Below are positions 220 through 41,163 of a stretch of 44,820 nucleotides of DNA, one piece after another. The stretch is taken from sequence record SRR20825019_764. One strand, given 5' to 3'. The position numbers were made by a program, and so were the translations under genes. The notes beneath the pieces are model-generated. The model was not told the DNA's origin, did not search any database, and saw only the letters and a program-made list of their open reading frames with translations. Each line of letters begins with the position of its first letter. Within the stretch, counting starts at the first letter, position 1.

Positions 220-1766
220 GCTGACTCTCCTTGAGCTTTCAGCTCATCGGGGAAATATTTCATCACGCTCTGAACCGGGAACGGGGTCATTCCTCCCATA
301 GCGCATAAAGAGCCGTCGATCATGGTTTCACAGAGATCTTCCAGCAGCACCCAGTTCTTATCCGAATTGTTGCCGTCACGGATGCGATCGATGACCTCGA
401 CGCCGCGGGTGGAACCGATCCGGCAAGGAGTACATTTGCCGCAGGATTCGACTTTGCAAAACTCCATCGAAAAACGCGCCTGTTCCCCCATGTCGACACT
501 GTCGTCAAACATGACTACACCACCGTGACCGAGCACGGCGCCAACAGCAGAGAATTCTTCATAATCGACCGGTGTATCCCACTGACCCGCGGGCATATAG
601 GCACCCAAAGGTCCACCCACCTGAACAGCTTTGAGCGGTCTTTCGGTCAGCGTGCCGCCACCGAAGTCTTCCATCAGTTCACGCAGCGTGATGCCGAAGG
701 CGAGTTCCACCAGCCCGCCCTGTTTAACATTACCGGCCAGCTGCAAAGGCAATGTGCCACGAGAGCGGCCCATGCCGTAATCAGCGTAGGCTTGGCCACC
801 TTTATCAAGAATGTAGGGAATCGCCGCCAATGACAGGACGTTATTCACCACGGTGGGTTTGCTGAACAGGCCGATAATGGCCGGTAATGGCGGCTTGGCT
901 CTGACCAGACCGCGCTTGCCTTCCAGGCTGTCCAGCAGCGAAGTTTCTTCACCGCAGATATAAGCGCCGGCACCAAGACGGACTTCCAGATCAAAATGCT
1001 TGCCTGAGCCCAGAATATTGGCGCCCAGATAACCGGCTTCATAAGCCTTGTCGATGGCTTCATTAAGGAGTCGATGCGCTACCGGGTATTCGGAACGCAG
1101 ATAGATATAACCTTGCGTCGCATGCACCGCGAGCCCCGCTATGGTCATGCCTTCAATCAGCATAAACGGGTCGCACTCCATCACCAGTCGGTCAGCAAAA
1201 GTCCCGGAGTCACCCTCATCGGCATTGCAGACAATATATTTCTGCTCGGATGGGGTATCGAGTACCGTCTGCCATTTGATACCGGTCGGAAACGCGGCAC
1301 CGCCGCGGCCACGCAGACCGGAAGCTTTGACTTCATCCACGATCTGTTGAGGTTCCAGTTTCAGTGCATTTTTGAGGCCCTGATAACCATCGAGAGATTC
1401 ATAATCTTTAAGCGATACGGGATCGGTTATACCGGCACGGGCAAAAGTCAGTCGTTGCTGTTTTTTCAGGTAAGGCATTGCTTCAACCAGACCAATGCAA
1501 CTTGGATGCTGATCACTGCCATTGACAAAGTCCGCCTCAAACAGCGCTGAAATCTGCCCCGGATCCAGAGCAGCATAGCCGACCCGACCTTTATCGGTCT
1601 CAACTTCCACCAGCGGTTCCAGCCATAGCATGCCGCGGGAACCATTACGGATAATCTCGATCGGGATATCGCGCTTTTCAGCTTCCAGCCGGATGGCATC
1701 GGCGACTTTATCTGCACCTAAAGAGAGCGCGGTGGTATCACAAGGCACATAAATTCGTCTGGTCAT
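216..1766 (-). CDS. fdsB: NAD-dependent formate dehydrogenase beta subunit (NuoF-like, FMN/NADH-binding)
   Basis: Motifs GLRGRGGAAFPTGIKW, CNADEGDSGTFADR, GAGAYICGEETSLL, SCGKCTPCR, SLCAMG. Confidence 0.95.
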   Translation of the reverse strand: MTRRIYVPCDTTALSLGADKVADAIRLEAEKRDIPIEIIRNGSRGMLWLEPLVEVETDKGRVGYAALDPGQISALFEADFVNGSDQHPSCIGLVEAMPYLKKQQRLTFARAGITDPVSLKDYESLDGYQGLKNALKLEPQQIVDEVKASGLRGRGGAAFPTGIKWQTVLDTPSEQKYIVCNADEGDSGTFADRLVMECDPFMLIEGMTIAGLAVHATQGYIYLRSEYPVAHRLLNEAIDKAYEAGYLGANILGSGKHFDLEVRLGAGAYICGEETSLLDSLEGKRGLVRAKPPLPAIIGLFSKPTVVNNVLSLAAIPYILDKGGQAYADYGMGRSRGTLPLQLAGNVKQGGLVELAFGITLRELMEDFGGGTLTERPLKAVQVGGPLGAYMPAGQWDTPVDYEEFSAVGAVLGHGGVVMFDDSVDMGEQARFSMEFCKVESCGKCTPCRIGSTRGVEVIDRIRDGNNSDKNWVLLEDLCETMIDGSLCAMGGMTPFPVQSVMKYFPDELKAQGESA

Positions 1767-2257
1767 CAGCCGGCCTCCTTCATGTCTTTCTGATGCTCAG
1801 CGATGAGGGCATCAAATTTATCGAGGCTGATCCGGCCGTGAATAACATCATCAATGCGAATTGAGGGCGCGGTGGCACAATTACCCAGGCAATACACCGC
1901 TTCCAGTGAAAAGCTTCGGTCGGCCGTCGTCTGGTGGTAATCAATGCCCAGTGTTTTTTTAGCATGCTGCTCAAGACTGCGGCAGCCCATTGCCTGACAG
2001 GCCTCGGCTCGACATATTTCTATGGTATGTCTCCCCGGCGGGGTAGTGCGAAAATGATGATAAAAACTGATGACGCCATGCACTTCGGCACGGGTCTGCA
2101 ACAGTGACTCGGCGATCTGACTGACAGCTTTATCCGGAATATAACCGAGCTCATCCTGGATAGCATGCAGAATGGGTAACATCGCACCAGGTTTGTGCTT
2201 CAGTTTGTCGATAATCTGTTGAATGGACTGCATTGCCCACTCTGTGTTTGAACTCAT
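1766..2257 (-). CDS. fdsG: NAD-dependent formate dehydrogenase gamma subunit (NuoE-like 2Fe-2S)
   Basis: Motifs AEVHGVISFYHHF, CRAEACQAMG, YCLGNCA. Start moved to ATG 2257 behind a GGAGAGAGG RBS. Confidence 0.92.
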   Translation of the reverse strand: MSSNTEWAMQSIQQIIDKLKHKPGAMLPILHAIQDELGYIPDKAVSQIAESLLQTRAEVHGVISFYHHFRTTPPGRHTIEICRAEACQAMGCRSLEQHAKKTLGIDYHQTTADRSFSLEAVYCLGNCATAPSIRIDDVIHGRISLDKFDALIAEHQKDMKEAG

Positions 2258-2275
2258 TGCCTCTCTCCATCCGAT

Positions 2276-2295
2276 ATATGCATTAAAATGCATAA
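2276..2295. promoter_or_regulatory. FdsR-type operator, fdsG-proximal copy (ATATG-N10-CATAA)
   Basis: One mismatch to the ATANG-N10-CNTAT dyad described for Cupriavidus (Ralstonia) FdsR; lies in the fdsG leader. Confidence 0.55.
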
Positions 2296-2350
2296 TTAAT
2301 ACTGTTTTTATTGTTGTTATTTGGACATTAGCACAGGGATATACAGATAA

Positions 2351-2374
2351 AAATATGACTTTATGATCATATTT
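2351..2374. promoter_or_regulatory. FdsR-type operator, distal copy (AAATATGA-N8-TCATATTT, containing ATATG-N10-CATAT)
   Basis: Perfect 8-bp inverted repeat matching the FdsR dyad, upstream of the fds operon. Confidence 0.65.
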
Positions 2375-2482
2375 AAAATACTGATTGAGCATCTCGCTTA
2401 TTTCAATTTTTTCAGCGAATCAGTTACTTTGAGCAATGCCTGACAAAGTAGCGGTTTAAGTTAGTGCAGGGGAAGGTGAAAA

Positions 2483-2499
2483 TGCACTCAGAATGTGCG
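2483..2499. promoter_or_regulatory. NtrC-like enhancer site TGCAC-N7-GTGCG
   Basis: One mismatch to TGCAC-N7-GTGCA, about 100 bp upstream of the predicted sigma-54 start site. Confidence 0.4.
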
Positions 2500-2561
2500 C
2501 AAAAATGCTCATTGAGCTAGACTAAAAAATTAAGTCTTTGAAATTAAATGAATAAAATTTA

Positions 2562-2577
2562 TGGCACAGCTGATGCA
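2562..2577 (+). promoter_or_regulatory. sigma-54 (-24/-12) promoter TGGCACAGCTGATGCA
   Basis: GG-N10-GC spacing with TGGCAC and TGCA; predicted +1 near 2588. Confidence 0.6.
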
Positions 2578-2587
2578 AAAGAATGAC

Positions 2588-2679
2588 TACAAACAATTTT
2601 TCAGCTGCATGTTGTTTGTAATTTCTCTCTTGTCTACGTGCTGAACTTGGGGTGAACTGATGTTCACCCCTTTTTTTTT
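2588..2679 (+). ncRNA. candidate ~92-nt sigma-54-dependent small RNA
   Basis: Bounded by a sigma-54 promoter and an intrinsic terminator; 5' hairpin TACAAACAA/TTGTTTGTA; U/C-rich linker; no + strand gene feeds this terminator. Confidence 0.55.
2649..2679 (+). terminator. intrinsic terminator
   Basis: GGGGTGAAC-tgat-GTTCACCCC followed by T9. Confidence 0.85.
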
Positions 2680-2748
2680 GCAACTGATTCAGGCCTGATG
2701 ACTCTGATAGCATAGAGATATGTTCAATAATCGGTTCCTGAGGGCAAG

Positions 2749-3678
2749 ATGCATCAGCACACTATCGAACGCTGGCAGCAGGATCATGACTTTGTCATCG
2801 TCAATAAACACGGTGAGAAACGAACCCGTTATGTCTTACTGCTGACGGCTGTAACGATGCTGGCCGAAATCATCGCCGGCATGGCTTTCGGGTCTATGGC
2901 GCTGCTGGCAGACGGCTGGCACATGGCGACGCACGTTGCCGCTTTTCTGATTACCCTGTTTGCCTATCACTACGCCACGAAACACGCGAACAATCCTGAT
3001 TTTGCGTTCGGCACCGGTAAGGTCAGCGTGCTTGGTGGATTCACCAGTGCTATCGCCCTCGGCGTGGTCGCGGTATTGATGGCGCTTGAATCCATGGAGC
3101 GGCTGGTCAATCCGCATGACATTCAGTTGAATGCAGCGATTGCTGTCGCTTTTCTTGGTCTCGCTGTCAATGTGGCCAGTGCCGTGCTGTTAAAAGATCA
3201 TCATCATAGCCACAGTGAGCTTGAGCATCATCACGATCACAATCTGAAAGCGGCCTATGTTCATGTGCTGGCTGATGCGCTGACCTCGGTACTGGCAATC
3301 ATTGCATTGATTGCAGCCAAACTGGCCGGGCTGACCTGGCTGGATCCAGTGATGGGTGTCGTCGGTGCGCTGATCATCACGGTCTGGGCGGTGGGCCTGA
3401 TTCGGGAAACCAGTCCGATTCTGTTGGATGGCAGTATCGATGCAGACTATCGGCAAGCCATACAGCGGCGGATCGAACATGATGCTGATAACCGCATTGC
3501 CGATTTCCATATCTGGCATATCAGTCCTCATCACTATGCCGCTATTTTTACCATTGTCACGGCCAAGCCTCAGTCAACGTCGTATTACAAAGCACTGTTA
3601 TCCGAGTTCGATCGTCTGTCTCATATCACGATAGAAGTGCATCAATGTGAAGATGCGCATTGCAGTCACCCGAGTTAA
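2749..3678 (+). CDS. dmeF: CDF family Co/Ni/Zn efflux transporter, DmeF-like
   Basis: GSMALLADGWHM, His-rich loop DHHHSHSELEHHHDHN, AAYVHVLADALTS, C-terminal HITIEV. Confidence 0.85.
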   Translation: MHQHTIERWQQDHDFVIVNKHGEKRTRYVLLLTAVTMLAEIIAGMAFGSMALLADGWHMATHVAAFLITLFAYHYATKHANNPDFAFGTGKVSVLGGFTSAIALGVVAVLMALESMERLVNPHDIQLNAAIAVAFLGLAVNVASAVLLKDHHHSHSELEHHHDHNLKAAYVHVLADALTSVLAIIALIAAKLAGLTWLDPVMGVVGALIITVWAVGLIRETSPILLDGSIDADYRQAIQRRIEHDADNRIADFHIWHISPHHYAAIFTIVTAKPQSTSYYKALLSEFDRLSHITIEVHQCEDAHCSHPS

Positions 3679-3720
3679 AACGGGCAAAGACGAAACCGGA
3701 TAAAAGCTTTTTTACTTCAC

Positions 3721-3736
3721 CGGTACGAATATTGCG
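3721..3736 (+). promoter_or_regulatory. sigma-54 (-24/-12) promoter CGGTACGAATATTGCG
   Basis: GG(3722-3723)-N10-GC(3734-3735), close to YTGGCACG-N4-TTGC, about 40 bp upstream of the glucosylglycerate operon. Confidence 0.55.
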
Positions 3737-3773
3737 TTGCTCCTCATCATCGTTTCAATGAAGAACATGAGAT

Positions 3774-5540
3774 ATGGATATGCTGAACATCGACCTCAGC
3801 GGCTTTCTCCAACAGCACCGCCTCCCCGCAGGCTACCAGCAGCAAATCACGGAATGGTTTGCGCCGCTTGCTGATGCCATCAAAACGCACCACAATGGTG
3901 CTGGACGCTCGATTATCGTCGGTATTAATGGTGCTCAGGGTTCAGGTAAAAGTACGCTGGCTGCTTGCCTGGCCTTTCTGTTGGAACAGCAACACCATTT
4001 ACGTGCCCTGTCTCTCTCTTTAGACGACTTTTACTTTACTCGTGCCGAACGCCAGCGACTGGCACAGGGTATTCATCCACTGCTCTCGACACGCGGGGTT
4101 CCTGGCACGCACGATATTCCGCTGGCCCGGAAAACGCTGAGTGATTTGCTGCATCAGCATTTACCAGTGCTGATTCCCCGCTTCAATAAAGCGATTGATG
4201 ACCGTTATCCGCCGGAGTTTGCCGAATGCATTAATGAGCCTGTTGATGTGATTGTGCTGGAGGGCTGGTGTCTCGGTGCCAGTGCTGAAACTGAAGACGC
4301 CCTGTCTGAGCCGGTTAATGAACTGGAGTCCAGCGAAGACCCGCATGGCCGCTGGCGTCGCTATGTTAATGAACAGCTGGCGCTGTTTTATCCTAAATTA
4401 TTCGAGTTGATTGATATCTGGGTCATGCTGAAAGCACCGGATTTTCAGTGCGTTTATGACTGGCGTCTGGAGCAGGAAAATAAACTGCGTGACAGCAGCC
4501 GTGCTCAGCATCAGATCATGGATGCTTCACAAGTGGCTCGGTTCATCAAGTTTTATCAACGCATCACCCAACACACACTGAAAACACTGCCTTTGCGAGT
4601 CAATTATTTGTTTGAGCTGGATCAGAACCGGCAAATCATCAAACTGACATCAAAGCCGCCCACACTGACGCCCATGACGAAAAAACAATGGCTGGTCTTC
4701 ACTGACATGGACGGCAGCCTGCTCGATCATCACAACTATCATTTTGATGAAGCGGTGCCAACGCTGATGGCACTGGAAGACCACCATATCCCGGTGATAC
4801 CGGTGACCAGTAAAACCCAGGCTGAAGTTGAATTGCTTCGTGACAGTCTCCACAACAGTCACCCCTTTATTGTTGAAAACGGGGCTGCCATATTCATCCC
4901 TGTCGGCTATTTTAAACAGCAACCTGCGGATACCATCGAAAAAAACGGCTACTGGCTTAAAGAGTTTGTGGCACCCCGCTCACACTGGCAATCATTAATC
5001 GAGCAAACCCGCAGCCGTTACCAGGGCGAGTTCAAGACCTTTGCCGAAGTCGGTATTGACGGCATTATCGCGATGACCGGGCTCAATGTGCATGCTGCTG
5101 CCCGTGCCGCACGCCGGCAATACGGTGAACCCATCGCCTGGCAGGGTAATGGCAATCTTAAACAGCAGTTCATTAATGACCTGAAGCAGGCCGGTGCCCA
5201 TATTCTCGAAGGCGGCCGTTTTATGCATGTCTCGGGCGATTGCGATAAGGGGCGCGCCATTCAATGGCTGAAACAGCGATACCAGACAGCAAGCCCTGAT
5301 ACTAAAATGGTGTCACTGGCGATCGGTGATAGTCAGAATGATAAGGCCATGCTGGAACAGGCTGATTATGCCCTGCTGATTCGTTCGCCGGTTCACCCGC
5401 TGCCCACCATTGAGCGCACTGACAAGCTTGTTGTTTCCAGCCACACCGGACCCAAAGGCTGGGCGGAAGGTGTCAATCAAATTATCGATGCAACGTTGCA
5501 TTCCGATTCATCCACATTACCCCGAGGCAATCATGGCTGA
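3774..5540 (+). CDS. fusion of GLYK-type D-glycerate 3-kinase and HAD-IIB glucosyl/mannosyl-3-phosphoglycerate phosphatase
   Basis: N-half: P-loop GAQGSGKSTL, SLDDFY, RGVPGTHD, EGWC. C-half: FTDMDGSLL, TSKT, PFIVENG, GGRFMH, DKG, GDSQND. Confidence 0.85.
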   Translation: MDMLNIDLSGFLQQHRLPAGYQQQITEWFAPLADAIKTHHNGAGRSIIVGINGAQGSGKSTLAACLAFLLEQQHHLRALSLSLDDFYFTRAERQRLAQGIHPLLSTRGVPGTHDIPLARKTLSDLLHQHLPVLIPRFNKAIDDRYPPEFAECINEPVDVIVLEGWCLGASAETEDALSEPVNELESSEDPHGRWRRYVNEQLALFYPKLFELIDIWVMLKAPDFQCVYDWRLEQENKLRDSSRAQHQIMDASQVARFIKFYQRITQHTLKTLPLRVNYLFELDQNRQIIKLTSKPPTLTPMTKKQWLVFTDMDGSLLDHHNYHFDEAVPTLMALEDHHIPVIPVTSKTQAEVELLRDSLHNSHPFIVENGAAIFIPVGYFKQQPADTIEKNGYWLKEFVAPRSHWQSLIEQTRSRYQGEFKTFAEVGIDGIIAMTGLNVHAAARAARRQYGEPIAWQGNGNLKQQFINDLKQAGAHILEGGRFMHVSGDCDKGRAIQWLKQRYQTASPDTKMVSLAIGDSQNDKAMLEQADYALLIRSPVHPLPTIERTDKLVVSSHTGPKGWAEGVNQIIDATLHSDSSTLPRGNHG

Positions 5541-6756
5541 TTTTTACCAGAATGGGATTATTACCACCTTACACAACCTGACTCACCGCCACATCGCTGA
5601 TCTGGAGAGTGACCTGCTGCAGTTCAGCAAACAACGGCCGATGGGCTTGCTACTGCCATCTTTATTCTCGGAACTGGAGGGTGAAGCCCTGCCTAATATT
5701 GTGCAGCAGCTGAAAAATGTCCCGTATCTGTCGGAAATCGTCATCGGGCTGGATCGTGCTGATGAGGCGCAATACCGGCATGCCATTAAATTCTTTTCTG
5801 ACTTGCCGCAGCACCATCGAATTCTTTGGAATGACGGGCCGCGTCTCAAAGCCATTGACGCCGAGTTACAGTCGCTGGGACTGGCCCCCAAGGAGCTGGG
5901 TAAAGGGCGTAATGTTTGGTATTGCATGGGCTATATTCTGGCCTCCGGCAAAACCGAATCCATCGCGCTGCATGACTGCGATATCGTCACCTACACCAGT
6001 GAATTACTGGCAAGGCTGATTTATCCGGTCGCCAATCCACAGTTCAATTATGAATTCTGTAAAGGTTATTACGCCCGTGTTGCCGGCGGCAAACTCAACG
6101 GTCGCGTCAACCGGCTACTGGTCACGCCGCTTATCCGGGCGCTTAAGTCCGTGATTGGTCACCATCCCTATCTGGAATATATGGACAGCTTTCGCTATCC
6201 GCTGGCAGGTGAATTCTCCTTCCGCCGGGACGTGCTGACCGATATCCGCATTCCCAGTGACTGGGGACTGGAAATCGGCGTGTTATCAGAGATGCATCGT
6301 AACTATGCCAATAACCGACTTTGTCAGGTCGATGTTGCCGATGCTTATGATCACAAACATCAAAATCTGTCACTGGACGATCAGCGTGGCGGCCTGTCAA
6401 AAATGTCGATTGATATCGCCAAATCCCTGTTCCGGAAACTGGCAACCAAGGGCGTGGTGTTATCTCCTGAAGCTTTTCGCAGCCTTAAAGCCACTTACTA
6501 TCGTATCGCACTGGACTTTGTCGAAACCTATCGCAATGATGCTGTCATGAACGGCCTCAATTTCGATATACACCAGGAAGAGGAATCGGTAGAAATGTTC
6601 GCCAAAAACATTATGGATGCCGGCCAGATGTTTCTGGAAAATCCGATGGAAACGCCGTTTACACCAAGCTGGAGCCGGGTGCAGAGTGCACTGCCGGATA
6701 TTTTTGACCGGCTCTATGAGGCGGTTGAAGCCGATTACCAGGAATTTTCTGCCTGA
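5533..6756 (+). CDS. gpgS: glucosyl-3-phosphoglycerate synthase (glycosyltransferase)
   Basis: MADFYQNG start, GKGRNVW, HDCDI, KGYYAR, YPLAGEF, DWGLEIG, YDHKHQ; ATG 5533 with GAGG RBS overlaps the upstream stop. Confidence 0.85.
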   Translation: MADFYQNGIITTLHNLTHRHIADLESDLLQFSKQRPMGLLLPSLFSELEGEALPNIVQQLKNVPYLSEIVIGLDRADEAQYRHAIKFFSDLPQHHRILWNDGPRLKAIDAELQSLGLAPKELGKGRNVWYCMGYILASGKTESIALHDCDIVTYTSELLARLIYPVANPQFNYEFCKGYYARVAGGKLNGRVNRLLVTPLIRALKSVIGHHPYLEYMDSFRYPLAGEFSFRRDVLTDIRIPSDWGLEIGVLSEMHRNYANNRLCQVDVADAYDHKHQNLSLDDQRGGLSKMSIDIAKSLFRKLATKGVVLSPEAFRSLKATYYRIALDFVETYRNDAVMNGLNFDIHQEEESVEMFAKNIMDAGQMFLENPMETPFTPSWSRVQSALPDIFDRLYEAVEADYQEFSA

Positions 6757-6769
6757 GGACTGATGCTTG

Positions 6770-8524
6770 ATGACCGTGACTGACGAGCAGCTTAATCAGC
6801 TGCATGAAACCGTTCTCTATCATCTGCAGGCGATTTATCAAGACAGCCTGCCTGATTTATCGTTGCCTGAACTGAGTGATGACATCATAAAAATAATGGG
6901 TCTCGACGAGACTTTTTTCGAGTCGGTTCCCCATAAAAACAACTGGGATCAATCTGATGTGGTGCTCATTACCTACGGCAACAGTGTGCAGCGTCAGGGC
7001 GAAGCACCACTGAAGACCTTATATCGCTTCCTCAACCACGAGATTAAAGGCTATATCAACGGCGTACATATACTGCCGTTTTTCCCTTTCTGCTCCGATG
7101 ATGGCTTTGCCGTGATGGACTATTACCAGGTCAACAAGGCGCTCGGTGACTGGGAGGATATAGAGAGAATCGCTGGCGATTACCGCTTGATGGCGGACCT
7201 GGTGATTAACCACGGCTCCAGCAGCGGAGAATGGTTCAAAAACTTTATCAAAGGGGAAGGTCCGGGCCATGACTACTTTTATACCACTGCTGCCGACACA
7301 GCGGTAAGTCAGGTAGTACGCCCGCGCACCAGTCCCTTGCTGCGGGAAACCGAAACCCACGACGGCATCAAATATGTCTGGTGCACCTTCAGTCATACCC
7401 AGGTCGATTTCGATTTCCGTAATCCCGAAGTGTTGAAGGAATTCATCCGTATCGTACGGTTCTATCTCGATAAAGGGATCCGCATTTTCCGTCTGGATGC
7501 CGTCGCTTTTTTATGGAAAAAGCCGGGCACCAGTTGCCTGAATCTGTCTGAAACACACGAAGTAGTGCGACTGATGCGCAACCTGATTCAACATGCTCAG
7601 CCGGATGCCGTCATCATCACCGAAACAAATATCCCCAACCGGGAAAACCTGAGTTATTTCGGTAATGCCAACGAAGCGCACTGTATTTATAACTTCTCTC
7701 TGCCACCGCTGCTGGTCAATACACTGGTCACCGGCAACTGCTTCTATCTCAAGCAATGGCTGATGAGTATGCCGCCGGCTCAGAACGGTACGGCCTATTT
7801 TAATTTTATTGCCTCGCATGACGGCATAGGTCTGCGCCCGGCAGAGGGTCTGCTGACTGATAGCGAAATCGCGTCACTGATCAGTACCATGCAACAGTTC
7901 GGCGGCCAGATTTCATGGCGCGCCGGTGATAACGGTGTCAAAAAACCTTATGAAATCAACATTGCTTTATTTGATGCTTTACAGGGGACAACCCAAGGGC
8001 CCGATCAATGGCAAATCGACCGTTTTGTCTGCGCTCATGCCATCATGCTCTCACTGGAAGGTATTCCGGGTATTTATATCCACAGTTTGCTCGCGACCAG
8101 TAATGATCTGGACAAACTTGAGCATAGCGGTCACAACCGCGCCATTAACCGGCACGAGTGGGATTACGATAAACTGACGGCTGAACTGGCCGATCCGGCC
8201 TCCCAGCATGCCCGCGTCTCTGATCTGTTGAAAAAGCTGGTGCACCTGCGCCAACAACAACGGGCCTTCCATCCCAATGCCACGCAGTTTACGCTACAAA
8301 TGGGGGAACAGCTGTTCGGTTTCTGGCGTCAGAGCATGGACAGACGTCAGAGTATTTTCTGTATTTTTAATATCAGCGATACGCCTCAGGCACTTCGCAT
8401 CGCTGAGCTTAATTTAATCGTGACCGATCGCTGGTGGGACCTTATCAGTGGTCATATTTTTGATGAAAAAACAGAGACTTTCACTGTTAAGCCCTATCAA
8501 GTGCTATGGATCACAAACAGTTGA
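6770..8524 (+). CDS. GH13_18 sugar phosphorylase, probable glucosylglycerate phosphorylase
   Basis: GVHILPF, DLVINH, RLDAVAF nucleophile, ETN acid/base motif (EIH in sucrose phosphorylase), ASHDGIG, PYEIN loop; operon context. Start is ATG 6770 or TTG 6767. Confidence 0.82.
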
Positions 8525-8584
8525 TGACTGTCATGATACATTCACGATGGTTTGTTAATGTTTTTTCCAAAAAAGGATAATTGC

Positions 8585-9439
8585 ATGTCTGAAGTTAAAC
8601 CTATTCGTAAATGCCTGTTCCCGGTAGCGGGATACGGAACCCGCTTCCTGCCGGCAACCAAAGCCATGCCCAAAGAAATGCTCCCCATCGTCAGCAAACC
8701 TCTTATTCAATACGGTGTGGAAGAAGCCGTAGAAGCCGGTGTCAGTGAAGCAGGTTTTATCACCGGTCGTGGTAAACGTGCCATCGCGGATCATTTTGAT
8801 ACCAGCTACGAGTTGGAACAGGAAATTAAAGGCTCCAGCAAAGAAAAATTCCTGGAAGATATCCGTAATCTGATGGATAGCTGTGACTTCATCTTTATCC
8901 GTCAACGCGCCATGCTCGGCCTCGGCCATGCCATTCTGACCGGTGAACCACTCATTGGCGATGAGCCTTTTGCCGTCATTCTGGCTGATGATCTGTGTTC
9001 CCCCCCTGAAGACAACGGCAGCAAACGTGTTCTTGCACAACTGGTTGAACTCTATGAACGCTACAACTGCAGTGTTATCGCGATTGAAGAAGTGCCCGGC
9101 GATAACATCAGTAGTTATGGTGTGATCTCCGGTCGTGAGATCGAAGAAGGTGTCTATGAAGTAGACGATATGGTCGAAAAACCCAAGCCACAGGATGCAC
9201 CCAGTAATCTCGGTATTATCGGCCGCTATGTGCTGACACCGGACATTTTTGATTACATTCGCAAAACACCACCGGGCACCAACGGTGAAGTTCAAATCAC
9301 CGATGCGATTAAGGCGATGGCACAGGAAAAACGGGTGCTTGCCCTGAAATTTAAAGGTCACCGTTTTGACTGCGGCAGCATCGACGGTTTTGTCGAAGCC
9401 ACTAACTACTACTATCAACGCGACTATAAAAAGTCATAA
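8585..9439 (+). CDS. galU: UTP--glucose-1-phosphate uridylyltransferase
   Basis: PVAGYGTRFLPATKAMPKEMLPI, GLGHAI, VEKP, GRYVL; ATG 8585 after AAGGA. Confidence 0.95.
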   Translation: MSEVKPIRKCLFPVAGYGTRFLPATKAMPKEMLPIVSKPLIQYGVEEAVEAGVSEAGFITGRGKRAIADHFDTSYELEQEIKGSSKEKFLEDIRNLMDSCDFIFIRQRAMLGLGHAILTGEPLIGDEPFAVILADDLCSPPEDNGSKRVLAQLVELYERYNCSVIAIEEVPGDNISSYGVISGREIEEGVYEVDDMVEKPKPQDAPSNLGIIGRYVLTPDIFDYIRKTPPGTNGEVQITDAIKAMAQEKRVLALKFKGHRFDCGSIDGFVEATNYYYQRDYKKS

Positions 9440-37262: not shown

Positions 37263-38210
37263 ATGAACTGGCAAAAATTAATCGAGCAACAACCTCAATC
37301 TGCCTCAATCATCGAGGGCAACAGCCTTATTCCTCTGCCGGGCCGGCAACTCATCCGGATCGCAGGCGATGAAGCCCAAAGTTTTCTGCAGAACCTGCTG
37401 ACTAATGATGTCAATGCGCTGCAGGTCAATCAATCTCAGTTAAGTGGTTTCTGTAACCCGAAAGGCCGGCTGCTGGCAGTTTTTCAGCTGGTAAGACGGC
37501 AGGATGATTATCTGATTGTGTTGCCGGCTGAACTCGCTGACGCTATCAGCCAGCGCCTCAACATGTTCAAATTACGCAGCAAAGTTGAAATTGGTCTGCT
37601 GGAAGGCAGCCATGTGTTGGGGCTGATTCATCCCCAAACCGGGCTTGGTTCAGCTGAAGCCTGGCAAGGTCACAGCATTGATGAAGGCCTGATTATTCGT
37701 CAGCCAGGTGAGACAAGCCGGTCATTACTGATCACAGAGGAAAAAAATGTTGCTGCATTAGCTGACTGGCTGAAACAGGATTGGCAACTCGTCGCTGCCT
37801 CTGTATGGCAATGTCTGGAGATTGAGGCCGGACTGCCTATGGTCTTCGCTGAAAGCAGGGAAACATTCACACCACAACAGATCAATCTCGATCTGGCAGG
37901 CGGTGTCAGCTTTAAAAAAGGCTGCTATCCCGGTCAGGAAGTCGTGGCACGTTTGCACTATCTGGGCTCCCCCAGTCGCAGACTCTTTCTGGGCCGGCTT
38001 CATGACGACACGCTGCCTGAGATCAACAGTGAGGTGACAGATGCTGATGGGGCTACGCTGGGTCATGTAGTACAAGCACAATTCAGTGCGGAAAAGACGA
38101 TTGTCTGCCAGCTCAGTATGAAACTATCTGCTATCGGCAAAACCGCCCTGGTCGGAGAGCAAAAGGTCGAATCGCTGACTCCGCTGGCCGCTGAGCCGGA
38201 CTCAGCTTAA
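37263..38210 (+). CDS. ygfZ: folate-binding Fe-S/tRNA-modification protein YgfZ
   Basis: Signature SFKKGCYPGQE. Confidence 0.95.
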   Translation: MNWQKLIEQQPQSASIIEGNSLIPLPGRQLIRIAGDEAQSFLQNLLTNDVNALQVNQSQLSGFCNPKGRLLAVFQLVRRQDDYLIVLPAELADAISQRLNMFKLRSKVEIGLLEGSHVLGLIHPQTGLGSAEAWQGHSIDEGLIIRQPGETSRSLLITEEKNVAALADWLKQDWQLVAASVWQCLEIEAGLPMVFAESRETFTPQQINLDLAGGVSFKKGCYPGQEVVARLHYLGSPSRRLFLGRLHDDTLPEINSEVTDADGATLGHVVQAQFSAEKTIVCQLSMKLSAIGKTALVGEQKVESLTPLAAEPDSA

Positions 38211-39565
38211 TCCAGCTCGAGCTTTTTCAGTTTGTAACGCAGGGCGCGGAAGGTAATACCCAACTTCTTGGCAGCAGCCGTCCTATTCCAGCGGGTCGCT
38301 TCCAACGCTTGCGTGATCAGTTGCCGCTCCTGATCCTCAAGACAGGACTCAAGATCCTGGGGCAGCGGCCCATCTGTTTCAGCTGAAAGAGATGCCTGAC
38401 TGCCTGCAACGGGCTGATGTTCAGGCAACATCAGGTCATCGATTTCAATGACATCGCTATCGGCCCAGGTCAGTGCACGTTCCAGAATATTCTCAAGCTC
38501 CCGTACATTTCCGGGAAAAGCGTAGGACAGCAGTTTTTTCATCGCCGCCTGGCTAATGACCGGTTTGCTCCGGTGGTTCTTTTTGGCCAGCAAGCCAAGA
38601 ATATGTTCCGCCAGCATCGGAATATCGGCCTGGCGCTCACGTAATGGAGGGACATTCAGCTCAATCACATTGAGCCGATAGAACAAATCTTCACGAAAAC
38701 TGCCTTCGCGCACGCATGCGGCCAGGTTTTTATGCGTTGCCGATAGTATGCGGACATCAACATTGACTTCTTCATTGCCGCCCACCGGTCTCACTGCCTT
38801 TTCCTGAATCGCACGCAGCAACTTGACCTGCATCATCAGTGGCAGATCAGCCACCTCATCCAGAAACAGGGTGCCTCCCTCAGCCGCCTGAAAAAGTCCC
38901 TCTTTATCAGCGACAGCGCCGGTAAATGCCCCTTTTCTGTGTCCGAAAAACTCGCTTTCCACCAGCTCCGCGGGAATCGCACCGCAGTTAATCGGTACAA
39001 ACGGTCCGTCAGTGCGAGCCCCCAGCTCGTGAATCAGTCGGGCCACCAGTTCTTTACCGGTGCCTGATTCGCCTGTGATATAGACGGGTGCCTGGCTTCG
39101 TGCCAGTTTAGTGATCTTGCCGCGCAGCGCACGGATGGGATCAGTATCACCGAGCAACTTGTCACGTGAGCGTCGCTCACGATGTTGTGGCCGATCCGGT
39201 GACAATTTCAGTGCTGCCTCAACCAGATCGCGCAGCATTCTGAGCTTGAGCGGCTTGGAGACAAAATCAAAGGCGCCTGATTTCAGGGCTTCTACGGCAT
39301 GATCAACATTACCGTGAGCAGTAATCACCGCAACCGGCAGTTCCGGCCACTGTTTCTGCAGTGTTTTAACAAAGTCGAGACCATTGCCGTCAGGCAGACG
39401 CATGTCGGTAAAACACAAATCGAATTTGTGCTGTTTCAGCGCCTGATGTGCCTGCGCCAGATTCTCAGCGGTGACACAGTCAATCGACATCCCGGAAAGC
39501 GTCATAGTCAGCAGTTCCAGAATATCCGGCTCATCATCAATTACGAGTGCTTGTCGATTTGTCAT
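38207..39565 (-). CDS. pilR: sigma-54-dependent response regulator PilR
   Basis: Receiver domain, GESGTGKE, GAFTGA, TRWNRTAAAKKLGITFRALRY; ATG 39565 overlaps the pilS stop. Confidence 0.9.
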   Translation of the reverse strand: MTNRQALVIDDEPDILELLTMTLSGMSIDCVTAENLAQAHQALKQHKFDLCFTDMRLPDGNGLDFVKTLQKQWPELPVAVITAHGNVDHAVEALKSGAFDFVSKPLKLRMLRDLVEAALKLSPDRPQHRERRSRDKLLGDTDPIRALRGKITKLARSQAPVYITGESGTGKELVARLIHELGARTDGPFVPINCGAIPAELVESEFFGHRKGAFTGAVADKEGLFQAAEGGTLFLDEVADLPLMMQVKLLRAIQEKAVRPVGGNEEVNVDVRILSATHKNLAACVREGSFREDLFYRLNVIELNVPPLRERQADIPMLAEHILGLLAKKNHRSKPVISQAAMKKLLSYAFPGNVRELENILERALTWADSDVIEIDDLMLPEHQPVAGSQASLSAETDGPLPQDLESCLEDQERQLITQALEATRWNRTAAAKKLGITFRALRYKLKKLELD

Positions 39566-41163
39566 GCGAGATATTCCTGCCATTCTCCCGGGAAGCTTAT
39601 ACGAAAACGACTGCTTTGCAACTCATCGGGCAGAAAGCTCAGGCGGGCACCGTTAGCCTGACAAAGTTCACGGGCCAGATACAGCCCCAGTCCGGTCCCA
39701 CCCTGACGCTGTGAATGAAACGGCTCAAACAGATGCTCCTGTACATCCTCCGAAACTCCCGGTCCATTATCACTGACATCAACGACAATTTCACCTTCAG
39801 ACTTGCTGAGACAAACGCTTACTCGCGGTAAAGATTGCTCCTGCTCCGAATAGTGCCAGGCGTTCTCCAGCAGATTCCACATAACCTGATGTAACTGTTC
39901 CGGATCCATCGCTACTTTGACCAGCGGTGATTCTACCTTTAACTCGATATCCAGTTCGGTCGCGCCTTTGAGATCGCGAAACTCACTAAGAAAGCGATCC
40001 AGCCAGGTTGCCAGTACCACCGTCGCCGGTTCCACTGTTTTACGGCGACTCATCTGCAGAATCGTCTCAATAATATTGTTCACCCGCTGACTGTGACGCT
40101 GAATAATACCGGTGAGCTTTTGCATCCCGTCATCCTGGTCTTGCTGTTCTGCCAGCAACTCACCGGCATGACTGATAGCGCCCAGTGGATTACGGATTTC
40201 GTGTGCGATACTGGCCGTCAGCCGACCCAATGAGGCGAGCTTGAGCTGTTGGGCCTGCTGCGCCATTGCCGAGGTGTTTTCGACATAAACCAGGGTTTCG
40301 CCACTGTCGAGTCGAGTCGCCGTCGCCCTGACCTCCGGCAAATCAGGCCGGGCCTGGAAAGGCTGAAACGGCTGGGGATTGTGATGCTGCCAGAGCCAGA
40401 TTTGTTCCGCCAGTACCGCTACATTCTGTTTCAGCTTAAAGCCGGGCACCGTACGTTCAATACCTAACAGATAACGTGCAGACTCGTTAAACAAAGTAAC
40501 ACTGCCATGCGCATCCAGTGCCAATACCCCGATTTGCAGGCGGCTGATGATGTGCTGATTCAATACCGCCAGGTTGGCGACATCACGCGCACGCTCTTCC
40601 GCCAACACCTGAGAAGTCTGCATTTTCTTTGACAGCCACTGTGCCAGCCAGGCAGTGACAAAGAATGTGGCACCCAGCAGTCCCGCCTGGCTGTATTTGG
40701 TGGCGCCGTCACCGGCAATTTGTGAGTAGCTGACTTCCAGCAGGATCGCCAGCGTCGCTATCGCAGCGATAAAGGCAGCCAGTCTGCCCGGCACCAGCGC
40801 ACCACCCGCAACCACCACGACCAGCAACAGCGAACCGAGTCCGGTCTGGAGCCCACCACTGGCATGTATCAGCATGGTGAGTGCAACAATATCGATGACC
40901 AGTTGCAGTTTGATCTGGGTATCGACGTAGCCCCAGCGTTTTAAGGTAAACACCAGCAGCACCAGCGCGATCAACAGATAAATCTGACTGACACTGGCAT
41001 AAAAACGTGGATCGACCGACCCCAGAAATTCGGGGGGCAGTTTCAGATAGAAAACAAAAAACAGAATGCCGGCCAGGAAAAAGCGATAGGCGGCAAAAAC
41101 AGTCAAAGCCCGCCAGGTGGCAGGGTCCTGACGTAATGTCAGTCGGGCGGAATCCGCACTCAT
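39562..41163 (-). CDS. pilS: sensor histidine kinase PilS
   Basis: Multi-TM N-terminus with SGG, LGRLTASIAHEIRNPL, GLYLARELCQANGA. Confidence 0.9.
   Translation of the reverse strand: MSADSARLTLRQDPATWRALTVFAAYRFFLAGILFFVFYLKLPPEFLGSVDPRFYASVSQIYLLIALVLLVFTLKRWGYVDTQIKLQLVIDIVALTMLIHASGGLQTGLGSLLLVVVVAGGALVPGRLAAFIAAIATLAILLEVSYSQIAGDGATKYSQAGLLGATFFVTAWLAQWLSKKMQTSQVLAEERARDVANLAVLNQHIISRLQIGVLALDAHGSVTLFNESARYLLGIERTVPGFKLKQNVAVLAEQIWLWQHHNPQPFQPFQARPDLPEVRATATRLDSGETLVYVENTSAMAQQAQQLKLASLGRLTASIAHEIRNPLGAISHAGELLAEQQDQDDGMQKLTGIIQRHSQRVNNIIETILQMSRRKTVEPATVVLATWLDRFLSEFRDLKGATELDIELKVESPLVKVAMDPEQLHQVMWNLLENAWHYSEQEQSLPRVSVCLSKSEGEIVVDVSDNGPGVSEDVQEHLFEPFHSQRQGGTGLGLYLARELCQANGARLSFLPDELQSSRFRISFPGEWQEYLA

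Follow-up and report, generated by a model that had tools for sequence, protein, structure and literature searches.

A conserved locus of Methylophaga predicted to encode a sigma-54-dependent small RNA next to a glucosylglycerate operon

What is encoded between the formate dehydrogenase gene fdsG and a dmeF-type CDF efflux gene, in a segment that holds a promoter and a terminator and no conserved reading frame between them, is the question raised by a stretch of DNA of 44,820 nucleotides from sequence record SRR20825019_764 (in the following, the window means this whole stretch). The original prediction, which was made from the letters of this DNA, had proposed that a complete unit without open reading frame (ORF) resides here, consisting of an NtrC-like site, a sigma-54 promoter, and an undescribed small RNA (sRNA) of about 92 nt that would be induced by nitrogen limitation. 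Comparison with related genomes suggests that positions 2452-2679 (+ strand), which comprise enhancer sites, an IHF-like box, a -24/-12 promoter, an RNA body, and a terminator (Table 1), form a complete, independently transcribed, and previously undescribed sRNA gene conserved in Methylophaga, the expression of which is predicted. It seems reasonably probable that the product is a stand-alone, anti-Shine-Dalgarno sRNA that is activated by NtrC and sigma-54 and probably depends on Hfq.

The CDF protein encoded in the window has its closest relatives in Methylophaga genomes (89, 88, 79, and 72% identity), and the remaining window is an ordinary gammaproteobacterial chromosome (lexA, dinB, rnc, era, lepA, rpoE-rseABC, nadB, and typA). 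In four Methylophaga genomes, the DNA situated 5' of the CDF gene aligns to 280 bases at the locus; each of these genomes possesses a single copy, the next-best matches having E-values of at least 0.16. In alignment A1 of the locus, near-invariance starts not more than 1-2 nt from the inferred +1 (ACAAACAA from 2589) and stops at the T-run, whereas the 10 bases from the -12 element to +1 as well as both flanks are variable. The RNA body is almost invariant in species whose adjoining CDF proteins are only 72-89% identical. A covariance model built from five sequences (R1) finds one match each in 31 of 83 genomes of the family, i.e., 16 strong matches of 95-127 bits (group 1, which includes the type of the window) and 15 weaker ones of 38-51 bits (group 2), and a second model built from all R1 matches (R2) finds matches in 41 of 90 genomes of the order. 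The copies inspected were 31, i.e., 30 loci and the window, with 17 copies in group 1 (including the window) and 14 in group 2, and the whole unit is kept in every one of these homologous loci. In the whole species-genome collection, the exact core pattern occurs in 23 stretches, 22 of them titled Methylophaga and one belonging to a metagenome-assembled genome of an unclassified gammaproteobacterium. An exact 43-mer of the RNA has no match in the collection of genome contigs. The sRNA gene seems to be restricted to Methylophaga and close kin, and among its cultured carriers are M. sulfidovorans DSM 11578, M. muralis Bur 1, M. lonarensis MPL, and M. pinxianii TMB456. A second, diverged tandem copy is present in two loci, L105 (about 1750-1860) and L108 (about 1226-1312), with its own TGGCA-N..TGC promoter and NtrC-like sites; these tandem copies have the core UGUUGUUCUCUCUCGUCU and a different 3' half before the terminator.

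The promoter proposed for this unit shows the GG/GC spacing and the TGGCAC-N5-TTGCW context of sigma-54 promoters, and if C2576 is taken as -12, the predicted +1 lies twelve bases further on at 2588, the first base of hairpin 1. The pattern TGGCA[CT]-N5-NTGC is found in all 31 copies, 16-26 nt (in most of them 24 nt) 5' of the start of the covariance-model match. NtrC boxes are of a 17-bp TGCACC-N5-GGTGCA type and are situated about 100 bp or more 5' of the promoter, and the box at 2483-2499 agrees with this in type and, with its center near -97, in distance. A GCAC-N7-GTGC box occurs at a fixed distance, centered about 70 nt 5' of the TGG, in 16 of the 17 group-1 copies, and both box and promoter are situated where the original prediction had placed them. 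Within the distal block GTTAGTGCA is invariant in alignment A1, and in 15/17 group-1 copies the distal GTGCA is located 98-100 nt 5' of the promoter TGG. Group 2 has two adjoining tandem boxes instead, TGCGC-N7-GTGC[AG] and N-GGTGC[AG]. An AT-rich spacer separates the NtrC-type box from the -24/-12 promoter. The motif YAA-N4-TTGATW is the reverse complement of the IHF consensus, and in its strict form it is present at the IHF-like position in three of the 31 copies, while the relaxed form YAA-N4-WTGWWW, starting 31-32 nt before the TGG, is present in 20; positions 2531-2543 may be considered a candidate IHF site. Judged from these elements, the layout is that of a textbook enhancer-dependent sigma-54 promoter. 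Neither of the two DNA motifs is by itself rare in the window (3 occurrences of GCAC-N7-GTGC versus 1.26 expected, and 2 of TGGCAY-N6-TGCW versus 0.92 expected), and the case against chance therefore rests on conservation and on the comparison with other genomes. The third GCAC-N7-GTGC box of the window (GCACCAGGTTTGTGC) is located at 2184-2198 within the 5' part of the divergent fdsG, and all three boxes of the 44.8 kb lie within 2184-3901.

In five of five Methylophaga genomes, the region upstream of glnA carries a sigma-54 promoter (TGGCGT-N5-CTGC) together with one to two GCAC-N7-GTGC boxes. In 2.5 Mb of the related genome G077, 45 such boxes exist, 14 of which (31%, versus 11.7% intergenic DNA) are intergenic, and these include boxes at amtB (ammonium transporter), glnA, ntrB, a nitrate/nitrite transporter, a nitrate-assimilation cluster, and the sRNA. 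True NtrC, encoded next to glnA, scores 729-739 bits in related genomes versus a cut-off of 558.6, and RpoN above its cut-off as well as Hfq are present in all five related Methylophaga genomes. Because a box of the same geometry precedes glnA, ntrB, amtB, and nitrate-assimilation genes in the relatives, the assignment to NtrC is strengthened, and the label of an NtrC-type site chosen from the sequence at first glance holds up; NtrC is the best-supported candidate for the activator. The window also encodes a sigma-54 activator response regulator together with an AtoS-like sensor kinase (38207-41163, - strand), 36 kb from the sRNA and syntenic in G077; with 418 bits for AtoC and 415 for NtrC, this response regulator stays under the cut-off of either model.

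Folded as 2588-2680 in RNAfold, the predicted RNA has a minimum free energy (MFE) of -25.8 kcal/mol, compared to -13.64 ± 2.56 kcal/mol for shuffled sequences (z -4.75), and none of 200 shuffles folds as stably. A hairpin starts at the predicted +1, as had been proposed, although its stem consists of 10 bp (2588-2597/2611-2620) and not of 9 bp. Hairpin 1 is unvarying within group 1, and with other arms it still pairs in L127, L128/L132, L131, and a sibling sRNA type described below; in the distant homologs that are driven by sigma-54 the arms are ACCAA/UUGGU (L128 and L132) and GCCAAUC/GGUUGGU (L131). The stretch that follows had been described as single-stranded and anti-Shine-Dalgarno-like, and the 28 nt in question, with AUUUCUCUCUUG at their beginning, are unpaired in both the MFE and the centroid structure. 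The strong terminator with its T9 tail, likewise part of the original description, is formed in both structures, in neither of which does an antiterminator pair with its 5' arm, and it is the sole site reported by the terminator scan (1 found versus 0.4 expected). Across the copies, six of the nine terminator pairs change on both sides, for example GGGGUGAAC/GUUCACCCC, GGGUAAAUC/GAUUUACCC, and GGGCAAAUC/GAUUUGCCC, and 100% of the cells are paired in an alignment that was fitted to the model and hence favors pairing. The motifs UUCAG and UCUCUC are both invariant in 35/35 aligned copies. A U-tailed intrinsic terminator and a conserved unpaired seed, i.e., the attributes of a base-pairing sRNA, are present together. 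No conserved ORF exists in the unit among the compared copies, in agreement with its initial description as free of ORFs, and the upstream gene is indeed divergent. A minus-strand ORF at 2522-2713 (63 aa) was rejected as a gene; it belongs to no Pfam family, and its counterparts vary in length and sequence.

Table 1. Position of the predicted sRNA gene and of neighboring features in the window.
Feature	Position	Strand	Description
fdsG	1766-2258	-	gamma subunit of NAD-type formate dehydrogenase; divergent, upstream of the sRNA
Distal enhancer half-site	2452-2468	+	block TTTAAGTTAGTGCA with GTGCA at its end, 31 bp 5' of the GTGCG arm of the proximal box
Proximal NtrC-type box	2483-2499	+	TGCACTCAGAATGTGCG = TGCAC-N7-GTGCG; 17-bp imperfect palindrome, center about -97 from predicted +1
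IHF-like box	2531-2543	+	TAAGTCTTTGAAA; starts 31 nt 5' of the -24 element
Sigma-54 promoter (predicted)	2562-2577	+	TGGCACAGCTGATGCA = TGGCAC-N5-ATGCA; GG at -24, GC at -12
Predicted sRNA	2588-2679	+	about 92 nt from inferred +1 to end of T-run; 119.5 bits with model R1
Hairpin 1	2588-2620	+	2588-2597 paired with 2611-2620, 10 bp; loop with invariant UUCAGCUGCAUG (2600-2611)
Single-stranded stretch, presumed seed	2621-2648	+	CU-rich anti-Shine-Dalgarno core AUUUCUCUCUUG (2621-2632), then UCUACGUGCUGAAC
Intrinsic terminator	2649-2679	+	9-bp stem (2649-2670) with 6 G-C pairs, 4-nt loop, T9
Conserved box	2702-2714	+	CTCTGATAGCATA; invariant or nearly so in 5/5 sequences of alignment A1, adjacent bases diverge
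dmeF-type CDF Co/Ni efflux gene	2749-3678	+	NCBIfam NF033827, 374 bits versus cut-off 250
P2, second sigma-54-type promoter	3721-3737	+	CGGTACGAATATTGCGT; correct GG-N10-GC spacing, before first operon gene (3774-5540)
Glucosylglycerate cluster	3774-9439		kinase-like/phosphatase fusion, GpgS-like synthase, sucrose-phosphorylase-like enzyme, GalU

Downstream of the terminator, the conserved box CTCTGATAGCATA is probably the extended -10 element (TGATAGCAT) of a promoter of the CDF gene itself, or possibly a site for a metal regulator. The dmeF gene separates the sRNA from the glucosylglycerate operon in group 1 only; a CDF gene is located downstream of the sRNA in 15 of 16 group-1 loci, lies upstream in inverted orientation in L103, and is lacking in all 14 group-2 loci. 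The idea that the unit is just a leader attenuator of the CDF gene, which would have refuted the original prediction, was rejected in view of this absence in group 2, the inversion in L103, and the lack of any pairing that competes with the terminator in the MFE and centroid structures. The first gene of the operon (3774-5540) codes for a kinase-like domain fused to a glucosyl/mannosyl-3-phosphoglycerate phosphatase, and a homolog of it is the gene that follows the sRNA on the same strand in group 2, with a Pfam HAD domain in seven loci and ORFs that end at the edge of the locus in the others. The window has a single occurrence of the P2 form CGGTA[CT]GAWWMTTGCG, as do 2.5 Mb of G077, where it is located at the corresponding locus; P2 follows the sRNA in all 14 group-2 loci, in 12 of them not more than 520 nt from the sRNA terminator. 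From the group-2 layout and the conserved P2 it therefore appears that the ancestral order is enhancer, P1 (the promoter of the sRNA), sRNA, terminator, P2, operon, with dmeF as an insertion in group 1. A near-perfect NtrC-type palindrome (GCACCACAATGGTGC) is situated at 3886-3902, about 110 nt into the first gene of the cluster, and is kept elsewhere as GCAC-N7-G[TCA]GC in spite of differing residues (HHNGA versus HQKSA); P2 may have a downstream enhancer here. According to passages of PMC5381378, glucosylglycerate builds up in some microbes upon nitrogen deprivation, which fits a locus under Ntr control. A full-text search found no paper on the regulation of glucosylglycerate in Methylophaga.

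Targets were sought in G077, where 2.50 of 2.90 Mb (86%) with 2386 roughly called start regions were covered, and among these start regions RNAduplex gave no outlier (mean -18.0, standard deviation 3.7, best -33.3). By contiguous helix, the top candidates are fba (14 bp), groES, the gene for PII (11 bp), a gene for an OlsF-like acyltransferase (12 bp), and genes for a molybdopterin oxidoreductase, usp, gloA, and nirB; in a comparison with five other genomes, the fba and PII pairings of G077 showed no complementarity conserved beyond the closest one. The start regions of the glucosylglycerate gene and of dmeF show no notable pairing with the sRNA. The idea of an ectoine switch was also rejected, as the start regions of ectB and ectC are at the 41st percentile, the called start of ectA, which is uncertain, is at the 82nd, and ask_ect is only among the top 5.3%. 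The ribosome-binding site of the divergent fdsG (2240-2262, - strand) reads GGAGAGAG(G/A) in five of five loci examined and is complementary to the CU core of the sRNA. Pairing of this Shine-Dalgarno sequence GGAGAGAG with the seed scores 7-12 across the five loci and reaches 13 contiguous pairs in L097; as a signal for a target this is suggestive at most and not decisive, since pairing would be expected of every strong Shine-Dalgarno sequence.

Several observations weigh against the reading as an NtrC-activated anti-Shine-Dalgarno sRNA. The pairings with fba and the PII gene are kept only in the closest genome and lost in four of the five others, so that they are treated as chance, and a CU-rich seed that complements any strong Shine-Dalgarno sequence says little about specificity. 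Both ends of the RNA are predicted from the sequence. Conservation of promoter and hairpins, on which the original prediction had staked its case, holds for the promoter, for the terminator with its compensatory changes, and for hairpin 1 in group 1 and the distant homologs, but hairpin 1 is lost in group 2. There, another helix is predicted in which UCAG(Y)UGCAUG pairs with CGUGCUGAGC and the CU stretch is put in a loop; it is part of the predicted MFE structure in at least 11 of 14 group-2 copies and in two of the 17 copies of group 1, is not in the same register in the two groups, and is disrupted by three changes in L136. Since both arms are invariant, covariation gives no verdict on this helix, which in group 1 would make a pseudoknot with the loop of hairpin 1. 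As to the enhancer, the exact GCAC-N7-GTGC box is missing from one group-1 copy (L091), and the proximal box of the window ends with GTGCG (2495-2499) where the relatives have GTGCA. The presence of ntrC, rpoN, and hfq is established for the relatives, and each related genome encodes 5-8 sigma-54 activators that match the NtrC model below its cut-off; NtrC is therefore best supported and not proven. That a sigma-54 enhancer-binding protein other than NtrC activates the gene, which would still produce an sRNA but in response to a signal other than nitrogen, might also be read from the two-component pair encoded in the window and from the group-2 boxes, which have TGCGC and not TGCAC. We consider such an activator unlikely, as box geometry and half-sites are the same as at glnA, ntrB, and amtB in the same genomes, the additional activator of the window is 36 kb away and unlinked to the sRNA, and, according to passages of PMC5381378, the osmolyte of the adjoining operon is tied to nitrogen deprivation in other bacteria.

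Other explanations concern the RNA itself. The promoter at 2562 might serve mainly dmeF and/or the glucosylglycerate operon, with a terminator that is read through upon a second signal such as osmotic stress and a short RNA that is a by-product of this cis-acting leader. The sRNA is indeed always situated upstream of the operon and on the same strand, 32-57 nt before P2 in eight group-2 loci, and in group 1 the start of dmeF lies about 60-70 nt past its end; moreover, co-regulation with an operon for a nitrogen-free osmolyte would be physiologically sensible in the light of passages of PMC5381378. Yet a conserved sigma-54-type promoter that belongs to the operon lies between the terminator and the operon's start codon, a conserved -10-like box for dmeF follows the terminator, sRNA and operon are 32 to more than 400 nt apart with insertions of dmeF or of other DNA, and L103 keeps the sRNA though its CDF gene is inverted. 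Together with a strong terminator (9 bp, T9) that is predicted in the MFE structure as well as in the centroid, neither of which pairs its 5' arm with an antiterminator, and with the two tandem units of L105 and L108 that have one promoter each, this makes a leader quite improbable. There is a slim chance that the RNA is sigma-54-dependent and acts otherwise than on Shine-Dalgarno sequences, i.e., through the invariant UUCAGCUGCAUG loop, as an RNA sponge, or by protein binding: UUCAG equals the CU core in invariance, it is common to the sibling sRNA type with its different promoter, and the search for mRNA targets of the CU seed brought no conserved one. Against this, the succession of 5' hairpin, unpaired CU stretch, and U-tailed terminator is the classical build of a base-pairing sRNA, the sole sub-threshold likenesses in Rfam are base-pairing sRNAs (SorY, AniS, and mmgR), and repeated GGA or other protein-titration motifs are lacking from the sequence. 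A hydrophobic micropeptide encoded from the ATG at 2609 (MLFVISLLSTC, 11 codons), be it alone or in a dual-function RNA, would agree with the presence of this ATG in 11 of 17 group-1 and all 14 group-2 copies and with the likeness of the first residues (MLF/MFV). It is nevertheless very improbable, given that six of the 17 group-1 copies have ATT (five) or ATA (one) instead, that frames and stops vary and yield peptides that range from 9 to more than 30 residues and in some cases extend across the terminator, that no purine-rich Shine-Dalgarno sequence precedes the ATG, and that copies differ in length by numbers not divisible by three.

Rfam 15 gives no match at gathering thresholds in the whole window, and a full-text search, in which papers mentioning both subjects were judged by titles and abstracts and by passages of PMC11526790 and PMC3840354, yielded no paper on sRNAs of Methylophaga, so that the description as undescribed stands within these searches. 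The sub-threshold matches of the window are SorY (34.8, gathering score 111), AniS (27.9, gathering score 50), and suhB/mmgR (23.3, gathering score 41), the tandem copy of L105 reaches 33.5 against suhB/mmgR, and the matched parts are in all cases the CU stretch and the terminator. GcvB and Qrr are missing from the Rfam matches even at E<=10, and the likeness to the R1 seed of GcvB that had been suggested is therefore dropped. Eight weak matches in other genera of the family (L129, L130, L133, L134, L135, L137, L138, and L139) represent a sibling sRNA type with the same hairpin, a UUCAGCU loop, and a AUUUCUCUCUCC stretch, which are followed by an extra hairpin and a terminator. This type has no sigma-54 promoter and follows a conserved ggaa..attcc..gggataagtcgctcat box at a gene end; both types occur together in three genomes (G044, G055, and G067), and the sibling type scores 30-31 against RF02278, below the gathering score of 50.

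Among the characterized sRNAs, NrsZ from Pseudomonas aeruginosa is RpoN-dependent, longer, processed, built of repeats, and adjoins ntrC. The Methylophaga sRNA has about 92 nt, consists of a single module, is situated about 100 kb from glnA-ntrBC in G077, and shows no detectable sequence relation to NrsZ. What they have in common is that NrsZ is, according to passages of PMC4253122, a stand-alone sRNA induced by NtrB/C under nitrogen limitation, an induction that is inferred here. MmgR/suhB from α-proteobacteria (RF00519) resembles it as a short sRNA with an unpaired, CU-rich anti-Shine-Dalgarno stretch ahead of the terminator, and mmgR is positively controlled by NtrC. In contrast, its scores stay below the threshold, it comes from another class of bacteria, and the alignment does not include the 5' hairpin. 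The Qrr sRNAs of Vibrio are sigma-54-dependent sRNAs of the Hfq type of about 100 nt with an activator of the NtrC family bound upstream. They exist in several copies in some genomes, as is the case in L105 and L108. Compared with the LuxO-box consensus, however, the Methylophaga boxes are of the NtrC type (GCAC-N7-GTGC) and not of the LuxO type, and the seed differs. Enterobacterial GlnZ is another sRNA of nitrogen limitation, whose level is set by NtrC-activated transcription, but passages of the reports (PMC9731577; bioRxiv 10.1101/2022.04.01.486790) describe it as cut from the 3' untranslated region of the glnA mRNA, whereas the Methylophaga sRNA has its own predicted promoter and does not adjoin glnA. 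AniS (RF02274), SorY (RF02651), and the Betaproteobacteria toxic sRNA (RF02278) share the succession of hairpin, CU-rich single strand, and terminator; the scores are far below their gathering scores, the matched columns are mostly terminator, and RF02278 is matched by the sibling type only.

Returning to the stand-alone sRNA as the preferred reading, we infer a sequence of events in which nitrogen limitation would lead to the binding of phosphorylated NtrC at the enhancer sites 2452-2468 and 2483-2499. An IHF-like bend at 2531-2543 would bring NtrC into contact with the sigma-54 RNA polymerase at 2562-2577, and transcription would start near 2588 and stop at the T9 terminator, producing an RNA of about 92 nt. 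Hfq might bind at the U-tail, and the CU-rich unpaired UUUCUCUCUUG might pair in trans with the ribosome-binding sites of targets and thereby lower their translation. Because the sRNA gene is located directly 5' of an operon with its own sigma-54-type promoter, sRNA and glucosylglycerate operon are probably induced jointly as parts of a single response that spares nitrogen. A more speculative possibility, which we regard as doubtful but worth stating, is a twin-promoter module under NtrC and sigma-54 in which one enhancer region drives both a riboregulator and an operon for a nitrogen-free osmolyte, with the sRNA as the post-transcriptional arm of a nitrogen-sparing switch and sibling sRNAs in Methylophagaceae that combine the UUCAGC loop and a UUUCUCUCUC seed with different promoters. 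If this were true, several signals would converge on one set of targets via a common seed.

To our knowledge, few sRNAs are driven directly by NtrC and sigma-54, and in a literature search none was found described for Methylophaga or marine methylotrophs. A publication on a methanotroph's NtrC regulon names the control of nitrogen metabolism by sRNAs as a subject still to be studied there (PMC12799797). The locus provides a sharply defined and highly conserved sRNA candidate with cultured hosts, and its position beside a sigma-54-type glucosylglycerate operon offers a testable link from nitrogen status to the choice of osmolyte.

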